DNA of 64,000 bases from Acidimicrobiia bacterium (GTDB taxonomy: Bacteria; Actinomycetota; Acidimicrobiia; IMCC26256; JAENVU01): NCBI GenBank assembly GCA_036502405.1, contig DASXYP010000047.1:10432-74431 (forward strand), read 5' to 3'. Shown here piece after piece: positions 18,661-57,335 of the stretch. Position numbers and translations under genes: made by a program. The notes beneath the pieces were generated by a model. That model was given only the letters and a program-made list of their open reading frames with translations, was not told the origin of the DNA and did no database searches. Numbering within the stretch: the first letter of the stretch is position 1; every line of letters starts with the position of its first letter.

Positions 18661-18733
18661 GGCTACTGGTGCGTCCGGTGATGGACGGAGTGTGGCGCGG
18701 GGCCCGAGCGGCCCGGCGAGCAGTCGCCGGGCG
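18661..18733 (+). repeat. CGTC-tagged dispersed element, copy 1
   Basis: 18667-18692 matches 57183-57208 at 23/26 nt; right end is a CCGGCGA-GCAG-TCGCCGG hairpin; left end overlaps the pccB -10. Confidence 0.65.
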
Positions 18734-18753
18734 CGTGAGTCAGGACGCCGGGA

Positions 18754-19533
18754 TCAGCGACTCGGAGCGCAGAGCATGACCAGGCCGCCGCCGAAGGTCA
18801 CGAGCACGCCGTAGTCCACGAGGTCCCACACGTTCAGCCCGGTGCCGAGGCCGCGGTCGCTCGTCGTCAGGAGGTCCTGGGTCTGCAGGACGTACACGAC
18901 GCAGATGATCATCAGCGCGAGCCCGAGCACCCTGCGCACGATCCCGCCACCCGACACGAGGGACACGACCGCGCCCACCCCGGCGAGGATCACGATCAGC
19001 AGGCCGAGCTCGAACCCACCCTTGAGCGCGTGGTCCCAACCGCTCAGGACGTTGACCGCCAGGCCGAACGCGTCGACCTGGTCCAGCTTGCCGACCGTCT
19101 GCACCCACGGGAGCACGGTCCCGACGATCGCCAGGATCCCGGCGAGCGCGCCGAGCACCGGGCCGGTGCCGAGGCGCATCCGGCTCCGTTGCTTCTCGAC
19201 GACCTTCGGAGCCGTGAGCGACGACGCGCCGGGCGACCCTTCGGGACCCGGGTGCGCCGCGACGGGCGCCGCGCCGACTGCGATCCCGGCCAGCTCCGTG
19301 CCGTCGACCCAGCCGTCGAGACCGTCGGCGGCTCGGATGTGGACCCACGGCGGGCGGCGACCGGCGACGCTGACCTCTTCTCCGGCCGTGAGCTCGCGGA
19401 TCGGCGGACCGCGGCGGTCCGGTCGCTCGAAGACGAGGATCCCGCCGGCGGGGACGTGGTGGACCTCGACGTGCCGGGCGGGGACGGCGCCTTCGCCCTC
19501 GGGCGCTGCAGTGCTGGTGGGCTCCTCCGGCAT
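18754..19533 (-). CDS. Membrane protein with N-terminal SH3b-like domain and several TM helices
   Basis: ELTAGEEVSV..WVHIRAADGLDGWV resembles bacterial SH3; hydrophobic C-terminal half with LPW motif. Confidence 0.7.
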   Translation of the reverse strand: MPEEPTSTAAPEGEGAVPARHVEVHHVPAGGILVFERPDRRGPPIRELTAGEEVSVAGRRPPWVHIRAADGLDGWVDGTELAGIAVGAAPVAAHPGPEGSPGASSLTAPKVVEKQRSRMRLGTGPVLGALAGILAIVGTVLPWVQTVGKLDQVDAFGLAVNVLSGWDHALKGGFELGLLIVILAGVGAVVSLVSGGGIVRRVLGLALMIICVVYVLQTQDLLTTSDRGLGTGLNVWDLVDYGVLVTFGGGLVMLCAPSR

Positions 19534-19553
19534 GGAGAAGGTATCGGCAGCCC

Positions 19554-19961
19554 TCAGTGCTCCTGAACCAGCTCGATGAGCGTGCCGAACGCGGTCTTCG
19601 GATGGACGAATGCGACCGTCGTGCCCCGGCTCCCCGGCCGGGGCGCGTCGTCGATGACGCGATGGCCCTCGGCCTTGACCCGGGCCAGCGCCGCGGCGCA
19701 GTCGTCGACCCGGTAGCCCACGTGGTGGAGCCCCTCACCCTTGGTCGCGAGGTACTTGGCGACCGGCGAGTCGTCCCGGACGGGGGTGAGCAGCTGCACG
19801 TAGGAGTCGGCCACCGCGAGCAGCGCCTCCTCCACCCCGTCCTTCTCCACCACTTCCCGGTGGGCCACGGTGCAGTCGAAGGTCTTCGCGTAGTACTCGA
19901 TGGCCGCATCCAGGTCGTTGACGGCGATCGCGATGTGGTCGATCTCGGTCAGCTCGCTCAT
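19554..19961 (-). CDS. mce: Methylmalonyl-CoA/ethylmalonyl-CoA epimerase
   Basis: IDHIAIAV, QLLTP, EGLHHVGYRV, FVHPK, LIELVQ motifs. Confidence 0.95.
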   Translation of the reverse strand: MSELTEIDHIAIAVNDLDAAIEYYAKTFDCTVAHREVVEKDGVEEALLAVADSYVQLLTPVRDDSPVAKYLATKGEGLHHVGYRVDDCAAALARVKAEGHRVIDDAPRPGSRGTTVAFVHPKTAFGTLIELVQEH

Positions 19962-20031
19962 CGCGCTCAGCGTAGGTCGGAGCGGGCCGCGTCGCTCAAG
20001 CCCGCCGCGGCCGGCGCCGACAACCCCCCGC

Positions 20032-20343
20032 ATGGGAACGCCGGGATGCCGCCACTACCTCGTCGTGACGGTCGCGGGTGAGCACCGCGATCGCGGCGCG
20101 ACCAGCCAGGAGATCGCCGACGCGTTCGAGACCGCGTGCACCGGGGTCACCGAGGTGCGCGAGATCAGGGTGGAGCGCAACCGGGTCTCCGGACCGGGAC
20201 AGGCCGACCTGATCGTCGCCACCGCGTACGACACCGCCGAGGACCTCGTGCGCGTCCGGGGGACGGTGTTGCGCGAATGCATCGAGAAGCTGCGCCAGCA
20301 GGTCGCGGACTTCGAGATCCGCGAGCTCAGCGCGATGGCCTGA
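20032..20343 (+). CDS. Small hypothetical protein, possibly Dabb-like ferredoxin fold
   Basis: GC3-rich ORF filling the gap between mce and ccr; pattern HYLVV...ERN...DLIV..YDTAEDL resembles Dabb; start uncertain. Confidence 0.55.
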   Translation: MGTPGCRHYLVVTVAGEHRDRGATSQEIADAFETACTGVTEVREIRVERNRVSGPGQADLIVATAYDTAEDLVRVRGTVLRECIEKLRQQVADFEIRELSAMA

Positions 20344-20346
20344 CCC

Positions 20347-21693
20347 TCAGGCGTACTTCCTGAACAGCGTGATCTGCGGGAGCAGGCGCTCGCGCATCTC
20401 GCCGTCGGTCACGCCGAGTCCTTCCTCGGGCGCGAGGCAGAGGATGCCGAGCTTGCCCTCGTGCTGGTTGTGGTGCACCTGGTACGCGGCCTCGCCGGTG
20501 TCCTCGAGCGCGAACGTCTTCGAGATGGTCGGGAAGATCTTGCCCTCGGCGATGAGCCGGTTGGCCTCCCACGCCTCGCGGTAGTTCGCGAAGTGGCAGC
20601 CCTTCAGCGTCTTCAGGTTCATCCAGAGGTAGCGGTTGTCGTACTCGATCATGAAGCCGCTCGTCGCCGCGCAGGTGATGATCATCCCGCCGCGCTTCGC
20701 GACGAACACCGACGCGCCCATCGTCTGACGACCGGGATGCTCGAACACGATGTCGGGGTCGGTGCCGACGAGCTCCCGGATCTTCTTGCCGAAGCGCCGC
20801 CACTCGGCCGGGTCCTGCTGGCCCTCGTCGTTCCAGAACCGGTAGCCCTCGGCCTTGCGGTCGATGACTGCCTCGACGCCGAGCTCGTGCAGCAGCGCCG
20901 CGCGTTCGGGTGACGAGACGACACCGACCGGGGTGCCGCCGCCGTTCAGCACGTACTGGCACGCGTACGCGCCGATGCCGCCGCTCGCGCCCCAGATCAG
21001 GACCGTCTGACCCTGGGTCATCTGCGAGCCGTTCGGGCTCACGATCATGCGGTAGCTGGTGGAGTTGGTCAGGGCGTTGACCGCGGCCTCCTCCCACGTC
21101 AGGTGCGCCGGCTTGGGCATCAGCTGGTTGGCCCGCACGATGCTCAGGTCCGCGAGCCCGCCGAAGTTCGACTCGAAGCCCCAGATCCGCTGGTTCGCGG
21201 CGAGCATCGCGTCGTCGTGGCTCGACGGGTCCTGGTCGTCGACGTAGTTGCAGTGGACGGTCACCTCGTCGCCGGGCTTCCAGTTGCGCACCGCGGACCC
21301 GACCCGCAGCACGACCCCCGACGCGTCGCTGCCCATCACGTGGAACGGCTGGTCGTGGCGCGCGCCCCACACGCTCTCCTTGCCCAGCCGCCTGAGGAAC
21401 CCGAAGGTCGGCAGTGGCTCGAAGATCGAGGTCCACACCGTGTTGAAGTTGATCGAGCTCGCCATCACCGCGATGACCGCCTCGTCGGGCGCGATCTCCG
21501 GGAGCGGGAAGTCCTCGACCCGCGTGGACTTGCGGGGGTCCTTCTCCTCCGACGGCAGCCCGTCGAACATGTTCTGGTCCTCGACCCGAACCAGCGCGCC
21601 CCGGGCCGACTCGGGCAGCGGGAGCGCGCCGAGCTCCTCGCCGGGCGCGCCTTCGAGGATCGCGGTGCGGATGGCGTCGATCGCAGTCGTCAT
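20347..21693 (-). CDS. ccrA: Crotonyl-CoA carboxylase/reductase
   Basis: ASSINFNTVW, GSDASGVV, IWGFESNFGGLA, IWGASGGIG, FEHPGRQT, HFANYRE motifs. Confidence 0.96.
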   Translation of the reverse strand: MTTAIDAIRTAILEGAPGEELGALPLPESARGALVRVEDQNMFDGLPSEEKDPRKSTRVEDFPLPEIAPDEAVIAVMASSINFNTVWTSIFEPLPTFGFLRRLGKESVWGARHDQPFHVMGSDASGVVLRVGSAVRNWKPGDEVTVHCNYVDDQDPSSHDDAMLAANQRIWGFESNFGGLADLSIVRANQLMPKPAHLTWEEAAVNALTNSTSYRMIVSPNGSQMTQGQTVLIWGASGGIGAYACQYVLNGGGTPVGVVSSPERAALLHELGVEAVIDRKAEGYRFWNDEGQQDPAEWRRFGKKIRELVGTDPDIVFEHPGRQTMGASVFVAKRGGMIITCAATSGFMIEYDNRYLWMNLKTLKGCHFANYREAWEANRLIAEGKIFPTISKTFALEDTGEAAYQVHHNQHEGKLGILCLAPEEGLGVTDGEMRERLLPQITLFRKYA

Positions 21694-21837
21694 GGGCGGC
21701 GACCGTAGCGAAGGGTGCGGCACCCTCGCACCCCGCCGCCGGCACCGCGGATCCGTCGCCACGGCCTGGACGGAAGGTCGGGGAGGAGGGCTACCATCCC
21801 AAGTGACCAGCGAGTAACCAGCCTTCGGGAGTCAGCC

Positions 21838-23022
21838 ATGCCCGGTTCCGTGATCGTCTCCACCGCTCGCACGCCGATCGGGAAGCTCTCGGGTGCGTTC
21901 GCGTCCCTCAGCGCGATGGACCTCGGCGGCGTCGCCATCCGCGCTGCGCTCGAGCGCGGCGGGGTGGGGCCCGACCAGGTGGACTACGTGATCATGGGCC
22001 ACGTCCTGCAGGCCGGGCAGGGCCAGATCACCGCGCGCCAGGCCGCGGTGAAGGGCGGGATCCCGATGACGGTCCCCGCGAACACGATCAACAAGGTGTG
22101 CCTCTCGGGCATCAACGCCCTCTACCTCGCCGACCAGATGGTGCAGTCCGGTGACGCCGAGGTCGTGGTGGCCGGCGGCATGGAGTCGATGACGAACGCG
22201 CCCTACCTGCTGCAGAACGCACGGTCGGGCTACCGGATGGGCAACGGCGAGCTGACCGACTCCCTGATCCACGACGGTCTGTGGTGCGCGTTCGACGCGA
22301 TGCACATGGGTGAGGGCACCGACAAGTACACCGCGAGCTTCGGGGGGCTCACCCGCGAGCTGCAGGACGAGTTCGCGGCCCGCAGCCACGACCGCGCCGC
22401 CTCCGCGATGAAGGAGGGCCGCTTCGCCGACGAGATCGTCCCGGTGCCGGTCCCGCAGCGCAAGGGTGACCCGGTGCTGGTCGAGGAGGACGAGGGCGTG
22501 CGGCCCGGCACCACGGTCGAGTCGCTGGGCAAGCTCCGCCCGGCCTTCACGAAGGACGGCACCATCACCGCGGGCAACGCCTCCCAGATCTCGGATGGCG
22601 CGGCGGCGATGATCGTCACCAGCTCCGAGAAGGCGGCCGAGCTCGGGCTCACGCCGATCGCCGAGCTCGTCGGCTACGGGATGGTGGCCGGTCCGGACAC
22701 GTCGCTGCTGACCCAGCCGTCACGCGCGATCAAGCAGGCGCTCGATGCCGCGAACCTCCCGCTCGCGTCGGTCGACCTGTTCGAGCTCAACGAGGCCTTC
22801 GCGGGCGTCGGGCTCGCGAGCGCACGGGACCTCGGCATCAGCGAGGACATCGTCAACGTCAACGGCGGCGCGATCGCGCTGGGCCACCCCGTCGGCATGT
22901 CCGGCTCGCGCGTCGTCCTGACGCTCATCAACGAGCTCAAGCGGCGTGGCGGCGGCATCGGCGCGGCGGCCCTCTGCGGCGGCGGCGGCCAGGGCGACGC
23001 GGCGATCCTCCGCACCCTGTAG
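21838..23022 (+). CDS. Acetyl-CoA C-acetyltransferase (thiolase)
   Basis: NKVCLSG, GGMESM, TAGNASQISDGAA, NEAFA, GGAIALGHPVG, CGGGGQG motifs. Confidence 0.96.
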   Translation: MPGSVIVSTARTPIGKLSGAFASLSAMDLGGVAIRAALERGGVGPDQVDYVIMGHVLQAGQGQITARQAAVKGGIPMTVPANTINKVCLSGINALYLADQMVQSGDAEVVVAGGMESMTNAPYLLQNARSGYRMGNGELTDSLIHDGLWCAFDAMHMGEGTDKYTASFGGLTRELQDEFAARSHDRAASAMKEGRFADEIVPVPVPQRKGDPVLVEEDEGVRPGTTVESLGKLRPAFTKDGTITAGNASQISDGAAAMIVTSSEKAAELGLTPIAELVGYGMVAGPDTSLLTQPSRAIKQALDAANLPLASVDLFELNEAFAGVGLASARDLGISEDIVNVNGGAIALGHPVGMSGSRVVLTLINELKRRGGGIGAAALCGGGGQGDAAILRTL

Positions 23023-23028
23023 CCCGCT

Positions 23029-23044
23029 CACCCCGGGCGGGGTG
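23029..23044 (+). terminator. Short hairpin after thiolase stop
   Basis: CACCCC-GGGC-GGGGTG, 6 nt after the stop. Confidence 0.45.
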
Positions 23045-23250
23045 GCTCCCGGCTCCGAGAAGACCTCGAGGACGCGTCCGATCCGGCCGCATCCCTCGTC
23101 GAAGACGCCCTCAGCAGGGCGGCAGCGCCGACGAGGTCCGTGGGCGCGGGCCGCGGCCCTGCCGATAGCCCCTGAAGGATTGCCGCGTTCCGGCCGACAA
23201 CCATCGCTAACGTCGATCAGTCCGCCGCTCTCCCTGAAAGGGGCGCACCC

Positions 23251-23964
23251 ATGTCCCAGGCTCCGCCACCACCTCCGCCGCCGCCTCCCCCGCCCCCGCC
23301 CCCGCCGGCCGGCGGGATGCCCATGCAGGCCCCGGGCGGGGCGTCCCGGTTCAGCGTCGGCGACGCGGTCGGCTACGGGTGGAACGCGTACTGGAAGAAC
23401 ATCGGCCCCATGCTGGTCATCACGATCGTGGTGATCGCGGTCCAGGTGATCCTGAACCTGATCGGCTCGGCCACGGGCAACTTCTTCCTCAGCGTGATCC
23501 TCTCGATCATCGCCTTCATCGTCGCGATGATCCTGACCATGGGCCTGTTCCGGGCCTCCCTCGCGGTGGTCAAGGGCCAGACGCCCGAGGTCAGCATGCT
23601 GTTCGAGACCGAGGGCCTGGCCAACTTCGTCGTCGCCGCGATCCTCTTCGGCCTGATGGTCTGGGTCGGCCTGATCCTGTGCATCGTGCCCGGGATCATC
23701 CTGTTCATCGTGTTCATGTTCTACGGGTTCGTGATCGTGGAGAACCCGAACATCGGCGCGATCGACGCCCTGAAGAAGAGCCAGGAGATGACCAAGGGCC
23801 GCCTCGGCGAGCTGTTCGTGTTCGGCCTCGCCATCGTCGGCATCAACATCGTCGGGCTGCTGCTCTGCGGCATCGGGCTGCTGTTCACCTATGGCATCTC
23901 GTACATCGCGGTGGCCTACGCCTACCGGACCCTCCGGGGCGAGCCGGTGGCCCAGCTGGTCTGA
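23251..23964 (+). CDS. Integral membrane protein with poly-Pro N-terminus (DUF975-like)
   Basis: Poly-Pro tract, FSVGDAVGYGW, GLILCIVPGI, AIDALKKSQEMTKG. Confidence 0.82.
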   Translation: MSQAPPPPPPPPPPPPPPPAGGMPMQAPGGASRFSVGDAVGYGWNAYWKNIGPMLVITIVVIAVQVILNLIGSATGNFFLSVILSIIAFIVAMILTMGLFRASLAVVKGQTPEVSMLFETEGLANFVVAAILFGLMVWVGLILCIVPGIILFIVFMFYGFVIVENPNIGAIDALKKSQEMTKGRLGELFVFGLAIVGINIVGLLLCGIGLLFTYGISYIAVAYAYRTLRGEPVAQLV

Positions 23965-23990
23965 CCTGCGGGTTCGCGACCCTTCGCTGC

Positions 23991-24018
23991 ACGGGAGCGG
24001 CCTGCGGGCCGCTCCCGT
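23991..24018. terminator. Perfect 12-bp hairpin between convergent genes
   Basis: ACGGGAGCGGCC-TGCG-GGCCGCTCCCGT. Confidence 0.7.
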
Positions 24019-24029
24019 CGCGTCCGGGC

Positions 24030-24449
24030 CTAGGAGCCGGTACCCAGCCAGTTGAACGGGGCGATCGGCAGGTTGCGCACGACCCAGAACACCACCACCG
24101 TGACCAGCGCGACCCGGGTCCAGGTCGGTGAGAAGGAGAACGCCCGCCAGCGGGGCCCGCCGAGCATCGCTGTGAGCGATACGAAGAGGCCCCAGAGGAT
24201 GAAGGGCATCGCCACGACCGCGAGCACGTTGTAGCTGAGCGCGGCGCCGAGATGCCCCGTGAGCAGCTGGTGGGCGGCCCGGGTGCCGCCGCAGCCCGGG
24301 CAGTCGAGGCCGGTCACCGCCTTGAACGGGCACACCGGCGGACCGTGGGTCGGGTCGACCAGCGCCAGCGTCACGCAGCCGCCGAGCAGCAGGCCGCCCG
24401 CGATCAACGGCGCCGCCCTCGAGCGCGCCGCCAAGGTGGTCGCCGTCAC
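24030..24449 (-). CDS. DUF2752-like membrane protein
   Basis: CPFKAVTGLDCPGCGGTRA, WVVRNLP motifs; leaderless GTG 7 nt after TAGCGT. Confidence 0.88.
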   Translation of the reverse strand: MTATTLAARSRAAPLIAGGLLLGGCVTLALVDPTHGPPVCPFKAVTGLDCPGCGGTRAAHQLLTGHLGAALSYNVLAVVAMPFILWGLFVSLTAMLGGPRWRAFSFSPTWTRVALVTVVVFWVVRNLPIAPFNWLGTGS

Positions 24450-24542
24450 GGCGTGAACGCTAGCGCTCCGTCCGGGAGCGATGGCCACGTCCCGGCCGGC
24501 GGGAACGCGCCTGACATCGCCGGTCGGGCCACCCGACGCCGC

Positions 24543-24950
24543 TCAGACGTGCGTACCTCCGGTCGCTTCCCAGCGGGCGTTCATCGCGTTCTGGCACTTG
24601 ACCACCCAGATGATCCATCCGACGATCGGGATCAGGTTCCAGAACCCCGTCAGTCCGGTCACGGGCTTCTCGAGCCCTTCCTGGGCGTACATGTTCCCGA
24701 TCTCGGCCGGCAGCAGGAAGACGTTCACGATGCCGATGCAGAGTCCGAGGATCAGGCCCACGACGCCGCCGACCCCGTTGCCGGTGCGCAGCTTCAGGTC
24801 CTCGAACACCCGGTAGTACCAGAAGAGCCCGTAGATCCCGAGCGTCACGATGCTGAGCAGGATCACCGTGACCGGTGAGCGCATCTGTCCGGGCGGACCG
24901 ACCGGGGACGTCACGCCCGAGGGCGTGGGCGCAACAGGGATGTTTGTCAT
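24543..24950 (-). CDS. DUF4234-like membrane protein
   Basis: RSPVTVILLSIVTLGIYGLFWYY, Q..MN motifs. Confidence 0.82.
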   Translation of the reverse strand: MTNIPVAPTPSGVTSPVGPPGQMRSPVTVILLSIVTLGIYGLFWYYRVFEDLKLRTGNGVGGVVGLILGLCIGIVNVFLLPAEIGNMYAQEGLEKPVTGLTGFWNLIPIVGWIIWVVKCQNAMNARWEATGGTHV

Positions 24951-24971
24951 GTCGGCATCATGGGGGTCGCG

Positions 24972-26376
<1,405 letters not shown>

Positions 26377-26382
26377 GGAACG

Positions 26383-26436
26383 CGTCCGGCAATCACTGCG
26401 GGTGGGCACGGCGACTACCAGACGCATCACTAGCCT
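26383..26436 (-). repeat. CGTC-tagged dispersed element, copy 2 (internally shortened, opposite orientation)
   Basis: CGTCCGGCAATCACTGC (26383-26399) is the exact reverse complement of 57319-57335; 26418-26435 matches the reverse complement of 57177-57194 at 16/18; 15-mer 26400-26414 is identical to 57204-57218. Confidence 0.85.
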
Positions 26437-26445
26437 GATGGGCGC

Positions 26446-27594: not shown

Positions 27595-27616
27595 GCGAAC
27601 GCTCACGTTCGCTCAG
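27591..27616. terminator. Perfect 11-bp hairpin between convergent transcription units
   Basis: CTGAGCGAACG-CTCA-CGTTCGCTCAG. Confidence 0.7.
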
Positions 27617-27663
27617 CCGGGCTCGTCGACGGTGACGAACTCGGACACGATGAGCCGGCGCAT
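27613..27663 (-). pseudogene. 16-codon N-terminal relic of a DHFR/RibD-C-terminal family gene
   Basis: GGAGG SD, then ATG; translates MRRLIVSEFVTVDEPG*, resembling the MRKLIVSEFVxLDG start of RibD_C proteins. Confidence 0.6.
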
Positions 27664-27738
27664 GGCGGCGACCTCCGGGTGAACGGTTTCGGTGCGGTAG
27701 ACCCGGCGCCGGCACGCAGCTCATCGGTCGCGGCGAGA

Positions 27739-28347: not shown

Positions 28348-28357
28348 CCGTCAGCGA

Positions 28358-30753: not shown

Positions 30754-31031
30754 GCGGACCGTGCACCCGCTGTCGACCCGACACCGAAGGGCGCGCCGCT
30801 CGCTGCCGGCTCAGGCCAGGCGACCCTGCGGCACACGGGAGGGCCCGCTGAGAGCTGCTTCCTTCCGGACCTGACTCGTTTCACGAGATCCCGTTGCGCA
30901 GGACCCGACCATCTACACCACTGGCGAGTCGCCTTCCCAACGGCGGCTCGGGCCTCGAACGGGGATTCGGCCCCCCATGACGTGGATTTGGGGTACAGGG
31001 CACCACGGGCTCCCCGCTTAGCACGGTCCGC
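30754..31031 (-). ncRNA. ffs: Signal recognition particle RNA, large (Alu-domain) type
   Basis: Reverse strand has GCCGTGCTAAGCGGGGAG-like 5' Alu start, GGTCCTGCGCAA, TCAGGTCCGGAAGGAAGCAGC helix 8, and terminal pairing 30755-30764/31021-31030; TACCCT -10 at 31038-31043. Confidence 0.95.
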
Positions 31032-31110: not shown

Positions 31111-31198
31111 GGAGGGATGCGAGAGCGGCCGAATCGGCACGCTTGGAAAGCGTGTGTGGGGCAACTCACCGTGGGTTCGAATCCCACTCCCTCCGCCA
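31111..31198 (+). tRNA. tRNA-Ser(GGA)
   Basis: Acceptor GGAGGGA/TCCCTCC, anticodon arm CACGC-TTGGAAA-GCGTG, long variable arm, TTCGAAT, encoded CCA. Confidence 0.97.
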
Positions 31199-36161: not shown

Positions 36162-36249
36162 GGAGGGGTGCGAGAGCGGCCGAATCGGATGGTCTCGAAA
36201 ACCATTGTGGCGCAAGTCACCGTGGGTTCAAATCCCACCCCCTCCGCCA
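36162..36249 (+). tRNA. tRNA-Ser(CGA)
   Basis: Acceptor GGAGGGG/CCCCTCC, anticodon arm ATGGT-CTCGAAA-ACCAT, long variable arm, TTCAAAT, encoded CCA. Confidence 0.97.
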
Positions 36250-48066: not shown

Positions 48067-48085
48067 GCACCTCCGGGGAGCTCAC

Positions 48086-48116: not shown

Positions 48117-48127
48117 CTGGTCGCACG

Positions 48128-48709: not shown

Positions 48710-49179
48710 GCCAGGTCGGAGTGGCCCTCCGCCCGGCGAAGGTCGACGAGGCGCCGGCGTTGAGCGAGCTCGCGCTCCGATCCAAGGCGCACTGGGGCTA
48801 CGACGAGGCATTTCTCGAAGCATGTCGGGACGAGCTCACGGTCCGTCCCGAGCACGTCGCCGGGGGCCGGGTGGTCGTCGCCACGTCCGGGGCGCGCGTC
48901 GTCGGCTTCTCGATCCTCCTCGGCGGACCGCCCCGCGCGGAGCTCGAGATGCTCTTCGTCGAGCCCGACGCCATCGGCACCAGGGTGGGATCGGTCCTGC
49001 TCGCGCGCCTGCGAGCCGACTCGCTCGCCCTCGGCTGCCGCGCGCTGCGCATCGAAGCCGACCCGCACGCGGTCGGCTTCTACGAGCATCACGGGGCGGT
49101 GCGGGTCGGCGACGAGCCGTCCGCGACGTTCCCGGGCCGCACCCTGCCGATCCTCGAGCTCGACCTCCGCCCGGCGTAG
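48706..49179 (+). CDS. GNAT N-acetyltransferase
   Basis: RSKAHWGYD, LFVEPDAIGT.VG, ADPHAVGFY motifs; ATGA overlap with TetR. Confidence 0.9.
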   Translation: MSQVGVALRPAKVDEAPALSELALRSKAHWGYDEAFLEACRDELTVRPEHVAGGRVVVATSGARVVGFSILLGGPPRAELEMLFVEPDAIGTRVGSVLLARLRADSLALGCRALRIEADPHAVGFYEHHGAVRVGDEPSATFPGRTLPILELDLRPA

Positions 49180-49188
49180 CGGGCACCG

Positions 49189-49665
49189 TTACCGGCCGGC
49201 GTCGCCGTCCACCAGCTCGCGCAGGATGTCCGCGTGACCCGCGTGCCGGCCGGTCTCCTCGAGCAGGTGCATGAGCACCCAGCGGAGGTTCACCGGAGGC
49301 AGGTCGCCGACCTCCCGGCACTCGTCGTCGAGCTGCGCGGACGCGACGATCGCGTCGACGACCGGCCACGCCGCCCGGTACGCGTCGACCGCCGCCCCGA
49401 TGGTGTCCGAGGGCTGCACCGAATCCGACGGGACGACATCGGCGGGCTCGCCGGCGAAGCGGTGGACGATCCAAAGGGACTCGGCGGTCGCCATGTGCTT
49501 CGCGAGCCAGAGCAGGGAGGTCCCGCTCGCCACCGGCGACGAGCGCGCCGCGGCGTCGTCGACGCCCTCGACCTTCCGAGCGAACGACTCGCGCTGGTAT
49601 TGCAGCAGGGCGAGCAGCGTCGCGCGCTCATCGGCGACGAGCCTCGGCGGCTTGCGGTCGACCAC
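49189..49665 (-). CDS. DinB/DUF664 family protein
   Basis: SLLWLAKHM, LRWVLMHLLEETGRHAGHADILRE. Confidence 0.88.
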   Translation of the reverse strand: MVDRKPPRLVADERATLLALLQYQRESFARKVEGVDDAAARSSPVASGTSLLWLAKHMATAESLWIVHRFAGEPADVVPSDSVQPSDTIGAAVDAYRAAWPVVDAIVASAQLDDECREVGDLPPVNLRWVLMHLLEETGRHAGHADILRELVDGDAGR

Positions 49666-49667
49666 GC

Positions 49668-50642
49668 TCAGCCCGAGAGCTCGGCCCGGGCCCGCGCGAA
49701 GAAGTCCAACGCGGCCCCGCGTTGGTCCGCGTGGTCGGCGAAGGCGGCAAGTCCCAGTGCCGCGAACGACCCCTCGTTCCAGAAGGTCTCCGAGTGCGGC
49801 GTCCACGGGGACACGTACACGTACGGCTCGGGGTGCTCCGCGTCTCCGGGTGACGCACCGTACGTGGCGCGTCGGCCGGCGGCTTCGTCGCCGAAGTCGA
49901 ACGAGAGGTCGAAGTGCTCGGGCCAGAGCTGCACCCGCGCGGGACTCAGGTTCCCCGCGTCGGCGCGCAGGGCTTCGAGCACGGAGGCGGCGAACCCGAA
50001 CCAGTCGGCGAGGAACCGCGCGGCCGCACCAACGACGAGCAGGGGAGCATCGGGCTCGAGGGGCGTCGTCGGGGTGTACACGTCGGTCGGCGCGCCGGTC
50101 TGGATTCCCAGCGCGTCGGCCGCGGCGCGGACGGTCGTGAGCGGGTGGAGCGTGGCCGCGCCCGCAACGACGTGGGTCAGGCCATCGACTCCGACGCGGA
50201 CCTGCTCGTCGGCGCCGAAGAACGGCGTGCCGAACCCGCCGCGCGTGAAGCGCAGCCCGATCTTGCCGTTCGCCCGGTAGCGCGCCGGCGCGACGACGTG
50301 CTCGGCCAGCGTGTGCCACGAAGTTCGCGTCGCCACGAGCGCGTCACGGTCCGGGGGCAGCACCAGCGGCCGCCACGCGCCGAGCCACCGGTCCGCGCAC
50401 CAGGGCGCGAGGTCCGGCTCGTCGTGAGCCAGGTCGTCCCACGTCGTTGCGGCGCCCACAACCGGCACCGGAGCAAGCACCGGGCGCTCGGAGCCGTCGG
50501 AGTCCTGGACGGGATCGTCGGCGAAGAGCGGTGGCGCGGTCGAGGCGGGTGGCGACGGCTCCAGCACCCGGACGTCGAAGCGGTCACCCGTTCGTTCCCG
50601 GGCCTCGCGCCGCGGGTCCACGGAGGAGCCGTCAGTGCTCAT
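49668..50642 (-). CDS. Hypothetical protein (DUF5996-like)
   Basis: GFGTP, QLWPEHFDL, GASPGD..HPEPY.YV motifs. Confidence 0.7.
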   Translation of the reverse strand: MSTDGSSVDPRREARERTGDRFDVRVLEPSPPASTAPPLFADDPVQDSDGSERPVLAPVPVVGAATTWDDLAHDEPDLAPWCADRWLGAWRPLVLPPDRDALVATRTSWHTLAEHVVAPARYRANGKIGLRFTRGGFGTPFFGADEQVRVGVDGLTHVVAGAATLHPLTTVRAAADALGIQTGAPTDVYTPTTPLEPDAPLLVVGAAARFLADWFGFAASVLEALRADAGNLSPARVQLWPEHFDLSFDFGDEAAGRRATYGASPGDAEHPEPYVYVSPWTPHSETFWNEGSFAALGLAAFADHADQRGAALDFFARARAELSG

Positions 50643-50824
50643 CGGCTGCCCACCCTACGACCGGCATCGGGCCGGGCCGCTCGCCGTGGCCCTCGCCCTT
50701 CGGTCCGTGAGGTTCACGATGATCTCGCCGATTGGGAATCCCCGGCGGCCGGTCGGCCGTTCCTCCCCGGGTGTGACGGACGCCCGGCATGGATAGCGTT
50801 CGTGGGCGATCGAAAGGAGCTCCC

Positions 50825-50911
50825 GTGCTACGACATGCGCTCTCTCATCACATCTACCTCGCCTCGATCCGCGACGAGGACTGGGTCGCCGCCCAGTTCG
50901 GCTACCGGTAG
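50825..50911 (+). CDS. Putative 28-aa leader peptide/uORF MLRHALSHHIYLASIRDEDWVAAQFGYR
   Basis: TAGCGT -10 at 50794, SD GAAAGGAG at 50812-50819, GTG 50825, TAG directly abutting the egtA ATG. Confidence 0.7.
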   Translation: MLRHALSHHIYLASIRDEDWVAAQFGYR

Positions 50912-52183
50912 ATGCCGACGCCGACGCAGGACCTCACCCTCGGCCACGCTCGACGCGTCGTCGCCGAGCACGGCTTTCTGACCTCCGCCCCCTCCCGCCC
51001 CGCCCCCACCTCCCCCGGCGCCGCCCGGCTCGGCATCGAGATCGAGTGGCACACGGTTCGCACCGACGACCCCGAACGCGCGGTGCCGTTCGACCGGCTC
51101 GAGTCGATCGCAAGGTCGATCCCCCTGCCGGGTCGCAGCCGCCTGACCTTCGAGCCCGGTGGCCAGGTCGAGCTGAGCTCGCAACCGCTCCCCCACTTCG
51201 ACGCGTGTCGCGTGATCCGCTCCGACGCCGCCGCGCTCACGACCGGGCTCGCGGCGGAGGGCATCGGGCTCGTCGGCGTCGGGCTGCTGCCCGGGCCTCG
51301 CACGCGCGTGCTGCGATCACCGCGGTACGACGCGATGGAGGCGCATTTCGATGCGCTCGGTGACGCCGGGCGCACGATGATGCGCCAGACCGCGGCCGTC
51401 CAGGTGAACGTCGACCTTGGTCCGGACCAGCAGTCGCCGAGCCGGTGGCAGAGCGCGCACGCGCTCGGTCCGCTGCTCGCCGCGGTCTTCGCGAACTCGC
51501 CGTTCGCGGCGTCGGGGCCGTCGGGCTGGAGCTCGACCCGGCTCGCGGTCTGGCTGGCGCTCGAGGGCGGCCGCTCGGCCCCCGTCGGCACCAACGGCGG
51601 CGCCGGCTCCGCGTGGGCCGAGTACGCGCTGCGGGCGCCCGTGATGTGCATCCGGGTGTCGGACGACGAGTTCGTTCCCGTCTGCGAGCCGCTGACGTTC
51701 GCGGACTGGATCGTCGACGGCCACGAGCTCGGCTGGCCGACCGAGGACGACCTCACCTACCACCTCACGACGTTGTTCCCACCGATCCGGCCGCGCGGCT
51801 GGCTCGAGCTCCGGATGATCGATGCGCTCCCGTCCGAGTGGTTCACGGTGCCGGCGATCCTGACCGCCGCGCTCCTCGAGGATTCCGAGGCGTCCGTGCA
51901 GATCGCGCGCGGACTGGCCCCCCTCGCCGGCCGTTGGGCCGATGCCGCGCGCGACGGTCTGCGTGACGCCGACTTCGCCGCGGCGGCGAAGGACTGCTTC
52001 GGCGCGGCGCGCCGCGCGCTCGGACGCCTCGGCGCACGGCGCGACATCACCGACATCCTCGAGCTCTACCGCGAGCGGTACGTCGATCGCGGCCGTTGTC
52101 CGGCCGACGATCTCCTCGAGTCGTGGCAGACGACGGGCCGTCTGACCCCGATGCCGGAGAGCGCGCCCGCACCCGTCGACTGA
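50912..52183 (+). CDS. egtA: Glutamate-cysteine ligase GCS2 family, EgtA-like
   Basis: LGIEIEWH, TFEPGGQVELSS, MMRQTAAVQVN, FANSP, HLTTLFPPIRPRGWLELRMIDA; egtB/C/D absent from the window. Confidence 0.82.
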   Translation: MPTPTQDLTLGHARRVVAEHGFLTSAPSRPAPTSPGAARLGIEIEWHTVRTDDPERAVPFDRLESIARSIPLPGRSRLTFEPGGQVELSSQPLPHFDACRVIRSDAAALTTGLAAEGIGLVGVGLLPGPRTRVLRSPRYDAMEAHFDALGDAGRTMMRQTAAVQVNVDLGPDQQSPSRWQSAHALGPLLAAVFANSPFAASGPSGWSSTRLAVWLALEGGRSAPVGTNGGAGSAWAEYALRAPVMCIRVSDDEFVPVCEPLTFADWIVDGHELGWPTEDDLTYHLTTLFPPIRPRGWLELRMIDALPSEWFTVPAILTAALLEDSEASVQIARGLAPLAGRWADAARDGLRDADFAAAAKDCFGAARRALGRLGARRDITDILELYRERYVDRGRCPADDLLESWQTTGRLTPMPESAPAPVD

Positions 52184-52247
52184 CCGGGGAGCCGGTCGTC
52201 GGCGCGCCCGCTCGACACCTCCACTCCGTCGCGGGCACTGTGGGCCG

Positions 52248-52985
52248 ATGACAGCCGCGGTCGTGCTCGTCCACGGAGCCTGGCACGGGGCGTGGTGCTT
52301 CGAGCCGGTGCTCGAACGCCTCGCGGGCACGGGCGTCGAAGCCTTCGCGGTCGACCTCCCCGGCCACGGCGCCGACCGGGGCCCGCTCGGCGACCTGCAC
52401 GCCGATGCGGCACGCGTGCGCGAGGTGCTGGACGGCATCGACCGGGACTGCGTGCTGCTCGGCCACTCGTACGGCGGCGCGGTGATCACCGAGGCGGGCA
52501 TCCACCCTGCGGTGCGCCACCTGGTCTACCTGGCGGCGTTCGCGCTCGACGCCGGCGAGTCCTGCATGGCCGCCGCGATCGCCGAGTCGCAGGCGATGCA
52601 GCTCGCGTACGACGGGCCGAACCTCGCGGACGCCTTCGTCCCCCACGAGGACGGGACCATCACCGTCGAGCCCGGCGGCGCGGTGGAGCTCCTCTTCCAG
52701 GACTGCGATCCGGCGACCGCGGCATGGGCCGTCGATCGGCTCGGACCGCAGCCGAGCGTGACGCTCGGGGACGTCCCGACCGCAGTTGCCTGGCGCGAGC
52801 GGCCTTCGACCTACGTCGTGTGCACCGAGGACCGGGGCGTGCACCCCGACCTCCAGCGCGCGCTCGCACGCCGATGTGACGAGCAGGTGGAATGGCCGAC
52901 GAGCCACTCGCCGTTCCTGTCCGCGCCGGATCGGGTGGCCGACCTCGTCGCGGGCATCGCGCGCTCGCTCCTGCCGCGGGGCTAG
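52248..52985 (+). CDS. Alpha/beta hydrolase (Abhydrolase_6-like)
   Basis: LVHGAWHG, GHSYGG, SHSPFL motifs. Confidence 0.9.
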   Translation: MTAAVVLVHGAWHGAWCFEPVLERLAGTGVEAFAVDLPGHGADRGPLGDLHADAARVREVLDGIDRDCVLLGHSYGGAVITEAGIHPAVRHLVYLAAFALDAGESCMAAAIAESQAMQLAYDGPNLADAFVPHEDGTITVEPGGAVELLFQDCDPATAAWAVDRLGPQPSVTLGDVPTAVAWRERPSTYVVCTEDRGVHPDLQRALARRCDEQVEWPTSHSPFLSAPDRVADLVAGIARSLLPRG

Positions 52986-53839
52986 GGCGCGACCAGTCCC
53001 AGGTTCTCGTAGATCTGCCGGGTCGCGGTCGACCGGTTCAGCGTGTAGAAGTGCAAGCCCGGCGCGCCGCCGTCGATCAACGAACGCGCGAGGTTCGTGG
53101 CCTCCTCGACCCCGACCGCGAACACTGCGTCAGGGTCATCCGCGACTGCCTCGAGCTTGTCCGCGAGCCAGCGCGGGAACTCCGAGCCCTGGAGCTGGGA
53201 CATGCGCTTGATGCTGCCGATCGTCGTCGCGGGCATGATGCCGGGGATCACCGGCTTGTCGACCCCGTGACTACGGAGGCTCTCGACGAGGTCGAAGTAG
53301 TGCTCGGCGTCGAAGAAGAACTGGGTGATCGCGAAGTCGGCAGCCGCGAGCTTGCGGGCGGTGTGGAGCCGGTCGCTCTCGCGGTTCGGCGAGCGCGGGT
53401 GCGGCTCCGGGTGCGCGGCGACCCCGACCGAGAAGTCGCCGATGCCGCGGACGAGGTGGACGAGGTCCACGGCGTGCTCGAGCTCCCCACGCGGCAGGTC
53501 GACGTCCGGCGGCGGGTCGCCACCGAGGGCGAGGATGTTCTCGATCCCGGAGTCGCCGTAGCGGGCGACGATCTCCTCGAGCTGCGCGCGCGTATGGCCG
53601 ACGCAGGTGAGGTGCGCCATCGGCGTCATCTGCGTCTCGCGCAGGATCCCGGTGACGATCTCGTGGGTCTTCTCGCGCGTCGAGCCGCCCGCGCCGTAGG
53701 TCACCGACACGTACGACGGCCCGAGCGGCTCCAGCTCCTCGAGCGCGGCGGTCAGCGCGAGCTCGGCCGCCGGCGTCCGCGGCGGGAAGAACTCGAACGA
53801 GTAGCTCGGGCCACGAGCCAGGATGTCTGCGATCTTCAT
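52982..53839 (-). CDS. metF: 5,10-methylenetetrahydrofolate reductase
   Basis: SFEFFPP, SVTYGAGG, AHLTCVG, ALGGD, ITQFFF, LHFYTLN motifs. Confidence 0.96.
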   Translation of the reverse strand: MKIADILARGPSYSFEFFPPRTPAAELALTAALEELEPLGPSYVSVTYGAGGSTREKTHEIVTGILRETQMTPMAHLTCVGHTRAQLEEIVARYGDSGIENILALGGDPPPDVDLPRGELEHAVDLVHLVRGIGDFSVGVAAHPEPHPRSPNRESDRLHTARKLAAADFAITQFFFDAEHYFDLVESLRSHGVDKPVIPGIMPATTIGSIKRMSQLQGSEFPRWLADKLEAVADDPDAVFAVGVEEATNLARSLIDGGAPGLHFYTLNRSTATRQIYENLGLVAP

Positions 53840-53895
53840 AAGTGACAAAAGGGTACGCGAGCGGTCGAGCCCCTTCGCCTACGTTCTCCGTCGAC

Positions 53896-54384
53896 GTGGA
53901 CTTCACCCTGACCCAGGATGTTCCGGCGACTGTCGATGCCGTGGATGCGGCGCTGGTGGACCCTGCCTTCCTGGTGCGCATGAGCGAGCTGCCGAAGCTC
54001 GGGTCGGCCGAGGTGGTCGCCGACGAGCGCGATGGTGACGTCGTCGCGCTCCAGGTGCGCTACCTCTTCCAGGCCGAGCTCTCGGCGGCGGTCACGCGCG
54101 TCGTGGACCCGAGCAAGCTCACCTGGGTCGAGGACTCGACCTGCGACCTCGCCGCGCACCATACGACGTGCGTCATCCGGCCCGACAACTACGCGAACCT
54201 GCTCGAGGGCAGCTACGAGGCGACGATCGTGGCCGCGGCGTCGGGGTGCACGCGGACGGTCACCGGTCGGATCAAGGTGCACGTGCCGTTGCTCGGGGGC
54301 AAGGTTGAGAAGGCGATCGTCGGCGGGCTCGCCGAGAACGCTTCGGCCCAGGTGGCTCTCTTGGCGGACTTCATCAGCTCGTAG
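53896..54384 (+). CDS. DUF2505-like (START-fold) protein
   Basis: KVHVPLLGGKVEKAIV C-terminal motif; start uncertain. Confidence 0.75.
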   Translation: MDFTLTQDVPATVDAVDAALVDPAFLVRMSELPKLGSAEVVADERDGDVVALQVRYLFQAELSAAVTRVVDPSKLTWVEDSTCDLAAHHTTCVIRPDNYANLLEGSYEATIVAAASGCTRTVTGRIKVHVPLLGGKVEKAIVGGLAENASAQVALLADFISS

Positions 54385-54421
54385 CTGCCGCGCTTTCCGT
54401 CGGATCGTTGGCCGGTCGGGG

Positions 54422-54510
54422 CGGGCATGTGGCCATTCGCTCAGACAGTGGTCTCTGCGCTCGCTGGCGCTCGCTCCGCGACCACAACTCGCTCGGTGGC
54501 CACACGCCCG
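54422..54510. repeat. TGGCCA-bounded hairpin element, member 2
   Basis: TGGCCATTCGCTCAGACAGT (54430-54449) and AACTCGCTCGGTGGCCAC (54486-54503) match the reverse complement of the 10144-10239 element; stems differ. Confidence 0.85.
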
Positions 54511-54580
54511 TCCCTTCCATGCCCGCGGTCGTTGATACGTCGGGCGCGGTTGTGTCTTGTGTCGGCACGGTGATCGATCG

Positions 54581-56821
54581 TCAGGGGTGGTGGGGGGTGA
54601 AGCGGCGGAGTCTGAGGGAGTTGGTGACGACGAAGACGCTGGAGAAGCCCATGGCGGCGGCGGCGATGATCGGGTTGAGGAGGCCGAGCGCGGCGAGGGG
54701 GATCGCCGCGACGTTGTAGGCGAAGGCCCAGAACAGGTTGCCGCGGATCGTCGTCAACGTCCGGCGGGAGAGCGCGATGGCGTCCGCCGCGGCGCGCAGG
54801 TCGCCCGACACGAGCGTGAGGTCGCTGGCCTCGATCGCGACGTCGGTCCCGGTCCCGATCGCGATGCCGAGATCGGACTGGGCGAGCGCGGGCGCGTCGT
54901 TCACGCCGTCGCCGACCACTGCGACGTCGTGCCCTGCGGCCTGGAGCTCGCGAACCACGTCGACCTTCTCGCCCGGCAGGACGTCCGCGACCACGCGGTC
55001 GACGCCGACCGCGATCGCCACGGCCTCGGCGGTCGCCCGGCGGTCGCCGGTGACCATCACCGTCTCGATCCCGAGCCCGTGCAGGGCCGCGACCGCGTCC
55101 CGCGACGTCGGCTTGATGGTGTCCGCGACCACGAACGCGGCACGGACCTGTCCGGCCCACCCGGCGAAGACCGTGGTGCGTCCGACCCGGGCCGCGGCGT
55201 CGGCCACCGCGCGCAGTGCGTCGGGGACCGGTTCGTCGGCCGGGGCCGCCCAGTCGAGCCGGCCCACCCGGACCTCGACGCCGTCGACCACCGCGCCGAC
55301 ACCCCGGCCCGGCTCGTTCGTGAAGTGCGCCGGTGGCGTCGGTGCCACGCCCCGGGTCCGGAGTCCGTCGGCGACCGCACGCGCGATCGGGTGCTCGGAG
55401 GCGTCCTCGGCGGACGCGGCGAGAACGAGCGTGCGTGCTTCGTCCTCACCCGGCGCGACGGCGACTTCCACCAGCTCCATCCGGCCCGAGGTGATGGTCC
55501 CCGTCTTGTCGAGCACCGCGGTGTCGACCCGACGCGTCGCCTCCAGCACTTCGCCACCCTTGATGACGATGCCGAGCTGGGCGCCGCGCCCCGTGCCGAC
55601 CATGATCGCGGTCGGCGTCGCCAGCCCGAGCGCGCACGGGCAGGCGATGATCAGCACCGCGACCGCGGCCGTGAACGCTTCGTTCGCCGAGTGCCCGGTC
55701 AGGAGCCAGATCGCGAGCGTGCCGAGCGCGATCGCGATCACGACCGGCACGAAGATGCTCGAGATCCGGTCGGCGAGTCGTTGCACCGGCGCCTTCGAGC
55801 CCTGGGCCTCGGCGACCAGACGGCCGATCTGCGCGAGAGCGGTCTCACTGCCGACGTGCGTCGCGCGCACGACCAGCCGACCGGAGGTGTTGATCGTCGC
55901 GCCGAAGACGGTGTCGCCCACCCCGACGTCGACCGGCACCGGTTCACCGGTGAGCATCGAGACGTCGACCGCCGACGCGCCGTCGACGACATTCCCATCC
56001 GTCGCGATCTTCTCGCCCGGCCGCACGACGAACCGGTCGCCGACCGCGAGCTGCTCGATCGGGACCTCCTCGCCGGTCTCGAGCCGGGCCGACTTCACGC
56101 CGAGCTCGAGGAGCGCGTGCATCGCGTCGCCCGAGCGGCGTCGCGCCCGGGCCTCGAAGTACTTCCCGAGCAGCAGCAGGGTGATGATCGCGGCCGCGGT
56201 CTCGAAGTAGACGTGCGCATCGTTGTCACCACTCATGGCCGACGACGCCGCATCCAGGAACACGAGGGCGACCACGGACCAGAGCCACGCCGCGGTGGTG
56301 CCGAGCGACACGAGCGTGTCCATCGTGACCGCGCCGTGGCGCAGGTTCACGAGCGTCGCCCGGTGGAACTGCCACCCGGCCCAGAAGATGACGGGGGTGG
56401 AGAGCACGAGGGCGATCCACTGCCAGCCGTCGACCATCAACGCCGGCACCATCGAGACGAGGAGCACCGGCACGGTGAGGACCGCCGCGACGATCAGCCG
56501 CGCCAGGACGGTCCGCTCGTCCCCGTGGTCGTGCCCGTGCGCACTGCCGGGCTCGGGCACCGAGTAGCCGAGGTCCGCGACCTTCGCCTTGAAGTGGTCG
56601 GGTCCCGTGACCGATTCGTCGTAGAGGACGGTCGCGGTCTCCGTGGCCAGGTTGACCCGGCATTCGCGAACACCGTCCAGCCCTCCGAGTGCGTGCTCGA
56701 CCCGGCCCACGCAGGATGCGCAGGTCATGCCGGCCACCGGGAGATCGATGCGACGTGTCTCCTCGGGCGCGGGCGCCTGCCGGTCGGTCGATTCGGCGCC
56801 TGCGTGCGTTCGGGTCGTCAT
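54581..56821 (-). CDS. copA: Cu(I)-translocating P1B-type ATPase
   Basis: GMTCASC HMA domain, [29 protein letters not shown] motifs. Confidence 0.95.
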
Positions 56822-56851
56822 CGCTTGCTCCTCGGCTCCCTGCTCGGTAGC

Positions 56852-56868
56852 ATACCCCCCTACCCTAT
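56852..56868. promoter_or_regulatory. Candidate CsoR operator (imperfect)
   Basis: ATACCCCCCTACCCTAT, a TAC plus C-tract motif between divergent copA and csoR. Confidence 0.5.
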
Positions 56869-56892
56869 CTACGACAACTGCGGAGCATTCCC

Positions 56893-57174
56893 GTGCGCGG
56901 CTACTCGATGCACAAGGACGACTACCGACGGCGCCTGGCCCGGATCGAAGGTCAGGTGCGCGGGTTGGCCCGCATGATCGACGAGGACCAGTACTGCATC
57001 GACGTGCTGACCCAGATCGCGTCGGTGACGCGGGCGCTGCAGGGGGTCGGGCTCGGGCTGCTCGACGAGCACCTCGGCCACTGCGTGCGGGAGGCGACCG
57101 AGCGCGACCCGGACGAGGGCGACGCGAAGATCACCGAGGCGATGGCCGCGGTCGAGCGCCTGCTCCGAGCCTGA
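56893..57174 (+). CDS. csoR: Copper-sensing repressor CsoR
   Basis: [25 protein letters not shown] (C-H-C ligands); divergent from copA. Confidence 0.94.
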
Positions 57175-57176
57175 GG

Positions 57177-57335
57177 GGCTGGTGGTGCGTCTGGTGATCG
57201 ACGGGGTGGGCACGGCGAGGTGGGCGGTGCTCGCCAGGACGCAGGACGAAGGCGCCGTGGGCTTCTGCGTCGAGGACGAGGACGCCACGAGCGCCGTCAC
57301 CGACCGGCCTGACCCCCGGCAGTGATTGCCGGACG
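57177..57335 (+). repeat. CGTC-tagged dispersed element, copy 3 (longest)
   Basis: Left end 57177-57218 and right end CCGGCA-GTGAT-TGCCGG-ACG shared with 18661-18733 and 26383-26436. Confidence 0.85.

Follow-up and report, generated by a model that had tools for sequence, protein, structure and literature searches.

The window analyzed here, a 64,000-nt stretch of contig DASXYP010000047.1 from an uncultured Acidimicrobiia bacterium, carries in its intergenic spacers copies of a small, non-coding, hairpin-forming and non-autonomous mobile element family, as is shown by comparing occupied with empty orthologous sites. The family belongs to the class of miniature inverted-repeat transposable elements (MITEs) and REPINs (doublets of repetitive extragenic palindromic (REP) sequences forming hairpins). 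The same comparisons show a short form of ~50-60 nt, a long form of ~160-170 nt, at least two subfamilies, and recent insertion activity in one genus-level clade of uncultured Acidimicrobiia. The spacers that hold copies are very short, and the insertions lie exactly at tetranucleotides resembling CTAG (CTAG, CTAC, TTAC) in stop codons or at the start of TAnnnT hexamers. A first-pass annotation of this DNA had described a REPIN/MITE-like mobile element with a "CGTC tag" whose end supplies -10 promoters to metabolic genes; the mobile element stands, whereas the supply of -10 boxes and the tag do not. We consider it reasonably probable that the family is moved as a single strand, by an HUH-type enzyme, into pre-existing CTAG-like sites.

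The three related intergenic segments from which this analysis started are present together with all the sequence features quoted for them. An 18-mer end motif, GGCTNNTGRTGCGTCYGG, matches at 18661(+), 26435(-) and 57177(+), and a fourth, inverted match with two mismatches, previously overlooked, lies at 57329-57346(-). These four matches compare with 0.43 expected and were reached in none of 100 shuffles; the next-best consensus matches in the window have at least four mismatches. A 21-mer common to copies 1 and 3 (c1 and c3) occurs twice against 0.06 expected. The 17-mer at the opposite end is exact at 26383-26399(-) in copy 2 (c2) and at 57319-57335(+) in c3, and a 15-mer recurs exactly at 26400-26414 and at 57204-57218, facing opposite ways with respect to the ends. 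One correction concerns c3, which has inverted ends and folds as a single ~165-nt hairpin. In total, three sites of the window account for four inverted-repeat ends of a single family, and a diverged copy, now c4, comes in addition, since the weak site noted earlier at 24457-24475 proved to be a genuine but diverged family member.

For every copy an empty orthologous site was found, and further copies lie at other loci in relatives (L153 and L187), which bears out the mobile element of the first-pass annotation. Orthologous loci (designated L plus a number; ~170 kb compared in total) were gathered by protein searches and contig look-ups from relatives with 81-97% protein identity. In the pccB spacer, L185 and L198 (83-84% relatives) read TGA...CCTGTCG TAGCCT GGCC(C)GC ATG without a family-1 element, and at the point of c1 they have CAGGCTAC/GACAGGA with no insert (slashes mark junctions). 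Among the relatives compared, c1 is common only to the closest metagenome-assembled genome (MAG), L129, in which a 33-35-nt remnant of the A-end is all that lies at this point. Because c1 is found in L129 and is absent from L185 and L198, it is older than c2 and c3; its long-range hairpin is no longer present in the predicted fold. Copy c2 is absent in all seven relatives (81-95% MetX identity), whose metY-metX spacer is 12 nt long and in the closest case reads GCGCG TAACCT GATCGGCGC ATG, while a metagenome contig, L001, has a c2 insert identical to that of the window. The strain of the window occurs in JGI sample 3300036773. Likewise, c3 is absent in six of six relatives (91-97% CsoR identity), where only 6-15 nt separate the two stop codons. 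Two stop codons are now supplied by the element, that of metY (TGA at 26374-26376) by the B-end of c2 and that of the DUF4190 gene (CTA at 57341-57343) by the right end of c3. Copy c4 lies immediately 3' of a CTAG (24460-24463), and its ends, GCTCCGTCCGG and ATCGCCGGTCGGGCCAC, match those of the L187 element (second subfamily). Three relatives lack c4: L184 and L198 have no insert and read CTAG/ACCCGGA or CTAG/ACGGCG, then TCAGACG, and in L186 a different hairpin element occupies the CTAG of c4.

The window also provides an empty site of its own, between the divergent MTHFR and DUF2505 genes. In the closest relative, L187, this site is filled by two tandem subfamily-2 elements, one long and one short; L188 has a degenerate short copy only. 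In the metagenome contig L153 (Ga0105238_10508228), a long element stands directly after the stop codon of a crotonase gene, a site that is empty in L196 and L197. This contig ends within the long element, as expected if the repeat disrupts short-read assembly, so that copy numbers in MAGs may be underestimates. The observed density is four copies in the 64-kb window and three elements in the ~170 kb of relatives. As a separate observation, a third, unrelated-looking hairpin family (CCGGAGGGCG...CGCCCTCCGG) occurs at L186:8071-8159 (the DUF2752 CTAG) and at L198:2145-2215 (the pccB spacer), and the intergenic spacers of this clade accumulate several hairpin families.

Target sites and -10 boxes

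The window has 10 CTAGs where 167 are expected (~16-fold under-representation); three of the ten are element junctions, and most are TAG stop codons. Over the whole window, TTAC and GTAA are more than 10-fold depleted and TA is ~2.7-fold depleted; GATC is 3.5-fold over-represented. The empty sites read CTAG at the crotonase stop codon and the DUF2752 -10 box, CTAC at the pccB and DUF2505 -10 boxes, and TTAC at the metY stop codon/metX -10 box. CTAG is thus almost purged from this 71% G+C DNA and nearly confined to stop codons and -10 boxes, which would leave an element that requires CTAG or TA no landing places but stop codons and the TA within -10 boxes. This accounts for the association of the element with both, and the apparent "mobile promoter" is a target-site effect.

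The boxes themselves are not peculiar to the element. A TAnnnT hexamer lies 4-10 nt before the in-frame start codon in 20 of 52 window genes and before none of 794 internal start-like codons, which suggests that ~40% of the window genes are leaderless or nearly so and makes -10 boxes of the leaderless type normal here, the TAGCCT-N6-ATG of pccB among them. The distance from TAGCCT to the ATG is indeed 6 nt at pccB and 9 nt at metX, as had been noted, but element-free relatives have hexamers with unchanged spacing to the start codon, so the element end is not their source. In particular, GTAGCCT-N6-ATG of pccB is retained in the element-free L185 and L198, and TAGCGT of DUF2752 is conserved in L184, L186 and L198, whether an element is present or not. 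In seven element-free relatives, metX has TAACCT, TAACGT or TAGCGT, each followed by N9-ATG, and the third base of the window hexamer is its sole difference from the closest empty site. At DUF2505, the element-free window has TACGTT and the element-bearing L187 and L188 have TAGGTT. Throughout these sites T1, A2 and T6 are fixed and the middle varies (TAGCCT, TAACCT, TAACGT, TAGCGT; TACGTT, TAGGTT). The element ends contribute no -35-like hexamer, and a scan with the sigma-70 consensus called no site there. As judged from these orthologous sequences, the -10 boxes are shown to be pre-existing target-side sequence that predates the element, which inserted at their upstream edge. The first two -10 bases survive insertion; the element replaces everything upstream of the -10 box and supplies none of it. 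The coincidence of element and -10 box follows from where the element inserts.

The junctions were read against the same empty sites. For c1 (hairpin strand: CAGGCTAC/insert...TCAG/GAC) and c4 (CTAG/insert/ACG), both flanks equal the empty site base for base, with no duplicated TA at either; for c2 and c3, the right flank matches. At c1 and c4 no TA duplication flanks the inverted repeats; at c2 and c3 the reading is ambiguous, and the third-family element of L186, which has CTAG on both sides against the single empty CTAG in L184, is compatible with one. On balance, duplication-free insertion 3' of the tetranucleotide would suit these alignments better than a duplicated TA, in a small sample of junctions whose cleanly fitting copies (c1 and c4) are the old ones. 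The tetranucleotide at the 5' foot is GTAG in L153, CTAG in c2, c4 and L129, CTAC in c1, CTGG in c3, and CGAG in L187.

Hairpin strand and mode of movement

One strand of the element, here A->B, with the A-end (GGCTAGTGGTGCGTC...) first and the B-end (...GCAGTGATTGCCGGACG) last, gives long hairpins when folded as RNA. The A->B folds reach -102.2 kcal/mol (z -4.1) for c3 on the plus strand, -36.1 kcal/mol (z -4.7) for c2 on the minus strand and -150.4 kcal/mol (z -6.6) for the L187 tandem pair, against -75.2 (z -1.1), -22.5 (z +0.4) and -109.1 kcal/mol (z -2.4), respectively, for the other strand. The c2 stem of 21 bp contains seven G.U pairs and exists on the minus strand only. Strand asymmetry of the minimum free energy was dropped as a lone criterion, as several unrelated G-skewed spacers behave likewise. 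Strand bias was measured by comparing each arm with the reverse complement of the other and recording the orientation of transition mismatches. Counts of transitions yielding G.T on the A->B strand, against those yielding it on the opposite strand, are 6:0 in c3, 7:1 in c2, 7:2 in the long and 2:0 in the short L187 copy, or 22:3 pooled over four copies that are not all independent. When the outer 19 pairs of five copies are aligned, 88% of the cells are paired, five pairs have changed on both sides, and two U.G pairs are retained in four of five copies. The covariation score was 0.379; shuffles gave 0.239, with 1 of 500 reaching the observed score, and slid registers gave no more than 0.17, although the alignment was registered to the structure by hand, which favors the score.

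The long-form arms of c3, L153 and L187 are merely ~65-75% alike, whereas their apical core is nearly invariant (Table 1), and blastn around the core gives 93-95% identity over 66-72 nt between long copies. The 15-mer of c2 is the exact complement of the left-arm 15-mer of c3 and is placed where the right arm belongs, and c2 therefore resembles an internal deletion of the long form; short forms are probably internal-deletion derivatives of long forms. A small open reading frame (ORF) in the long form (MGFCVEDEDA...) is shared among copies only within the invariant core and is not evidence of coding.

In the reading that we favor, and hold to be reasonably probable, the element would move, like the substrates of IS200/IS605 TnpA or of a RAYT (REP-associated tyrosine transposase), as one specific single strand, and it would enter directly 3' of the tetranucleotide and duplicate no target sequence. 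The candidate mover is an HUH tyrosine transposase that acts on single-stranded DNA hairpins and would be encoded elsewhere in the genome. An HUH-type enzyme is suggested by the strand-specific, wobble-tolerant hairpin, the apparent lack of duplication, and the resemblance of the left-flanking tetranucleotide to that of the right end. In HUH systems, a target tetranucleotide flanks the left end, a final tetranucleotide closes the right end, and hairpins are present (PMC6006769); REPIN hairpins are maintained with compensatory changes (PMC3116915). Several observations weigh against this reading. The youngest copies, c2 and c3, have a left tetranucleotide that is altered relative to the closest empty site (TTAC->CTAG and CTCAG->CTGG), so no simple junction model fits without extra changes. 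The c2 hairpin is weak with DNA parameters (-12.1 kcal/mol, z -0.6). Copy orientation (three plus, one minus) showed no clear link to the weakly negative GC skew among the four copies, and only ~9 copies are known. The apical core is the most conserved part of this family and the ends the least, which is the reverse of REPINs. Finally, no Y1/HUH or other transposase and no RAYT was found among the window ORFs or in the Pfam lists of the ~170 kb of relatives' loci.

A MITE of the IS630/Tc1-mariner type remains a serious rival owing to the CTAG/TA target, although we judge it rather unlikely. In such a classical cut-and-paste system acting on double-stranded DNA, a DDE transposase would bind the terminal inverted repeats, insert into the TA of CTAG and duplicate the TA. 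The inverted ends of 18-21 nt, the targets centered on TA in CTAG-like tetranucleotides and the 16-fold depletion of CTAG would all suit it; so would the L186 third-family element (CTAG...CTAG against an empty CTAG in L184) and the right junction of c3 (CAC-TA-GG). A preference of IS630 for TA within 5'-CTAG-3', not defining for the family, is documented by Tenzen & Ohtsubo (1991) as that work is cited in PMC2170065. Other right junctions lack a second TA (GAG-TCAG-GAC in c1, CCAC-CCG-ACG in c4, TCAG in c2), and a double-strand reading of the ends gives no reason why ~20 of 23 arm-to-arm transitions are compatible with wobble pairing on one and the same strand; no IS630-like gene was seen in the window or the relatives' loci. 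It is a doubtful but conceivable alternative that this is an undescribed kind of single-strand hairpin element of Actinomycetota, a ~160-nt rod with fast-covarying, G.U-rich arms and a core serving as recognition or functional module, the inverse of REPINs. Such an element would home to CTAG at the upstream edge of leaderless -10 boxes and at TAG stop codons, and its mover might be an unrecognized HUH or other enzyme of single-stranded DNA, or an RNA intermediate.

A structured RNA module on the A->B strand, either a mobile terminator or stabilizer hairpin or an RNA-mediated (retro-type) element, would explain the G.U-rich stems, the c2 fold that is strong with RNA and weak with DNA parameters, and the covarying arms around a near-invariant 51-nt core, the usual signature of functional RNA; c3 and L153 also lie directly 3' of a stop codon in sense orientation. 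We regard it as improbable, given that in c1, c2 and c4 both flanking genes run antisense to the hairpin strand, which in L187 lies upstream of the -10 box, that neither c2 nor c3 matched an Rfam family at E <= 1, that no reverse transcriptase was seen near the copies, and that fold-energy asymmetry is common in other G-skewed spacers of the window. The portable promoter of the first-pass annotation, an element end carrying the -10 box for pccB, metX and others as Correia elements do in Neisseria, is very improbable. At three start codons the element end does adjoin a TAGCCT or TAGCGT placed at leaderless spacing, and the metX hexamer went from TAACCT to TAGCCT upon insertion, but the same positions hold hexamers in element-free relatives, neither a -35-like hexamer nor a sigma-70-type site is provided, and at c3 and L153, which stand at stop codons, the outward hexamers are degenerate. 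Hardly credible, finally, is an immobile operator or transcription-factor site of a regulon, which the first-pass annotation had itself named as the outcome that would speak against a mobile element. Its ~18-nt shared motif would adjoin promoters of metabolic genes, but the motif is absent from the orthologous promoters of close relatives (spacers of 6-23 nt), the copies are insertions of 57-166 nt, and one of them lies between convergent stop codons.

Searches, neighboring genes and other features

A 22-nt pattern searched against 185,579 species genomes gave 28 single matches, all of them chance matches in unrelated taxa except L129 (uncultured Acidimicrobiia MAG MFD05442.bin.1.317; ~92% identity to the window over 8 kb), which has the end motif upstream of its own pccB. 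Metagenome contigs gave 34 matches, of which L153 is the sole real one; the others were rejected as coincidences in coding sequences, mostly in one human-gut gene. Exact-pattern scans of the genome and metagenome collections thus returned L129 and L153 only. An 18-mer scan of a viral collection gave, among the matches listed, single chance matches and was replaced by stricter patterns; viral scans with the core and the subfamily-2 end, and blastn of c3 against plasmids and phages, gave no matches.

Features of the window and of one relative's locus are collected in Table 1; c2 is flanked by metY and metX. A mechanical 389-aa ORF at 18740-19909(-) was rejected as the neighbor of pccB in favor of the shorter SH3_3-like gene, supported by GC3 (G+C content of third codon positions) and relatives, and the boundary of the pccB spacer shifts accordingly.

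Table 1. Positions of element copies, associated motifs and flanking genes (window coordinates unless stated)
Feature	Position	Strand	Remarks
c1	18667-18743	+ (hairpin-forming A->B strand)	Old, decayed family-1 copy, 77-nt insert; SH3-like gene/pccB spacer
c2	26373-26429	-	Young short form, 57 nt; metY-metX spacer
c3	57179-57344	+	Young long form, ~162-166 nt, inverted ends 18-21 nt; csoR-like/DUF4190 convergent spacer
c4	24464-24535	+	Decayed subfamily-2 copy, 72 nt; between DUF4234 and DUF2752 genes
Apical core of long form	57236-57286	+	Invariant at 50 of 51 nt in c3, L153 and the long copy of L187
B-end 17-mer GCAGTGATTGCCGGACG	57319-57335	+	Identical in c2 and c3; CCGGCA-N5-TGCCGG palindrome in c3
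TAGCCT, -10-like hexamer	18660-18665	-	6 nt before pccB ATG; pre-existing; identical hexamer and spacing in L185 and L198
TAGCGT, -10-like hexamer	24457-24462	-	7 nt before DUF2752 GTG; pre-existing
TAGCCT hexamer	26431-26436	+	9 nt before metX ATG; ancestral as TAACCT, TAACGT or TAGCGT
Empty site, MTHFR/DUF2505 divergent spacer	53840-53896	.	TACGTT-N10-GTG
L187 tandem	6774-6994 (of L187)		Long 168 nt and short 49-nt hairpin, direct tandem, identical 32-nt start
pccB-like carboxyltransferase gene	17034-18653	-	
SH3_3-like (SH3-like) protein gene	18754-19533	-	Upstream of pccB; GC3 analysis and relatives
DUF2752 gene	24030-24449	-	GTG start at 24449
DUF4234 gene	24543-24950	-	
csoR-like repressor gene	56893-57174	+	Beside copper P-type ATPase gene
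DUF4190 gene	57341-57718	-	Convergent with csoR-like gene

The spacer at 59887-60017, before the gene at 60018, is 45 nt longer than in L191 and folds at -68 kcal/mol on the antisense strand against -48 kcal/mol. It was rejected as a further antisense hairpin, since it is mostly a conserved TAACCT/GGAGG promoter-leader (5' untranslated region) shared with L191. Elsewhere, at 9897-10073, a 60-nt unit is repeated 2.9 times in tandem with 85% matches, within the 378 nt that separate a GGDEF gene from a convergent neighbor; each unit holds an inverted repeat, CTGGAGCGC...GCGCTCCAG. In the window, Rfam reported only the signal recognition particle RNA (30759-31026(-)) and tRNA above the gathering threshold. 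The two tRNA-Ser genes at 31111-31198 and 36162-36249, with anticodons GGA and CGA, are 83% identical to each other.

Comparison with known systems

The family is genuine and a new member of the MITE/REPIN class in uncultured Acidimicrobiia, and its unusual traits are the conserved core, the homing to CTAG and the one-strand signature. It adds hairpin elements with a clear single-strand signature from a poorly studied class and, should its enzyme be discovered, could bring Acidimicrobiia into the range of REPIN/RAYT-like or IS200-like biology. At core genes with leaderless promoters (pccB, metX), the element repeatedly rewires the adjoining upstream DNA and leaves the -10 box intact. Strain pairs with and without the element are therefore natural comparisons of how much the sequence upstream of the -10 box matters in leaderless actinobacterial promoters.

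With CGTC-tagged REPs the family shares a CGTC, palindromy and an extragenic location. As defined by Di Nocera et al. 2013 (PMC3733652), these REPs, found mostly in Alphaproteobacteria, carry an unpaired CGTC tag at one end of the palindrome; their stem is 8-9 bp long with A/T pairs in its first two positions, the loop measures 4-5 nt, and a CCA tail is present. In c2 and c3, by contrast, CGTC is paired with GACG inside the stem, and the window stems have 19-21 bp or more, a loop of 6 nt or a ~120-nt inner hairpin, and no CCA tail. The family is therefore not a CGTC-tagged REP as defined in PMC3733652. The same source contradicts the link between CGTC REPs and RAYTs drawn in the first-pass annotation, as CGTC REPs have no dedicated transposase and RAYTs accompany GTAG REPs.

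REPINs and REPs moved by RAYTs (PMC3116915, PMC6006769) are closer. Like them, the family is short, non-coding and extragenic; its two inverted ends and spacer form a long single-strand hairpin kept by compensatory changes, its ends can supply TAG stop codons, and no target duplication is evident. A tetranucleotide also stands at the 5' foot, GTAG in L153 and CTAG or CTAC elsewhere, although it is mostly CTAG rather than GT[AG]G and lies partly within the stem. REPIN/RAYT systems have a single-copy RAYT gene flanked by repeats and tens to hundreds of copies per genome, whereas no RAYT was found in the window or the relatives' loci, and the host is actinomycetotal where the defining papers deal mainly with Proteobacteria and Cyanobacteria.

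IS200/IS605 ends and their miniatures likewise insert 3' of a short specific sequence, which is TTAC in IS608 and CTAG, CTAC or TTAC here; this holds exactly at c1 and c4 and at the right flank only of c2 and c3. The right end closes in a related tetranucleotide (TCAG or CTAG), no clear duplication is seen, and the secondary structure is strand-specific, as the 22:3 G.T bias and the conserved U.G pairs indicate. Unlike canonical members, which have a separate subterminal hairpin per end, the two ends of this family make one hairpin; no tnpA or tnpB gene was seen, and the left-flank tetranucleotide is altered at c2 and c3. IS630/Tc1-mariner MITEs resemble the family in their terminal inverted repeats, their preference for the TA inside CTAG, their small size and their intergenic location, and differ in the TA duplication, which is not seen at c1 and c4, and in a double-strand mechanism that leaves the strand-biased wobble unexplained.

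The Correia (CREE/NEMIS) elements of Neisseria are hairpin MITEs at TA sites beside genes, and their ends can coincide with a -10 box, which is created by the element end together with the duplicated TA. In the present family no -10 box made by the element end was found; the hexamers are already there in element-free orthologous sites, and the -10 box predates the insertion.

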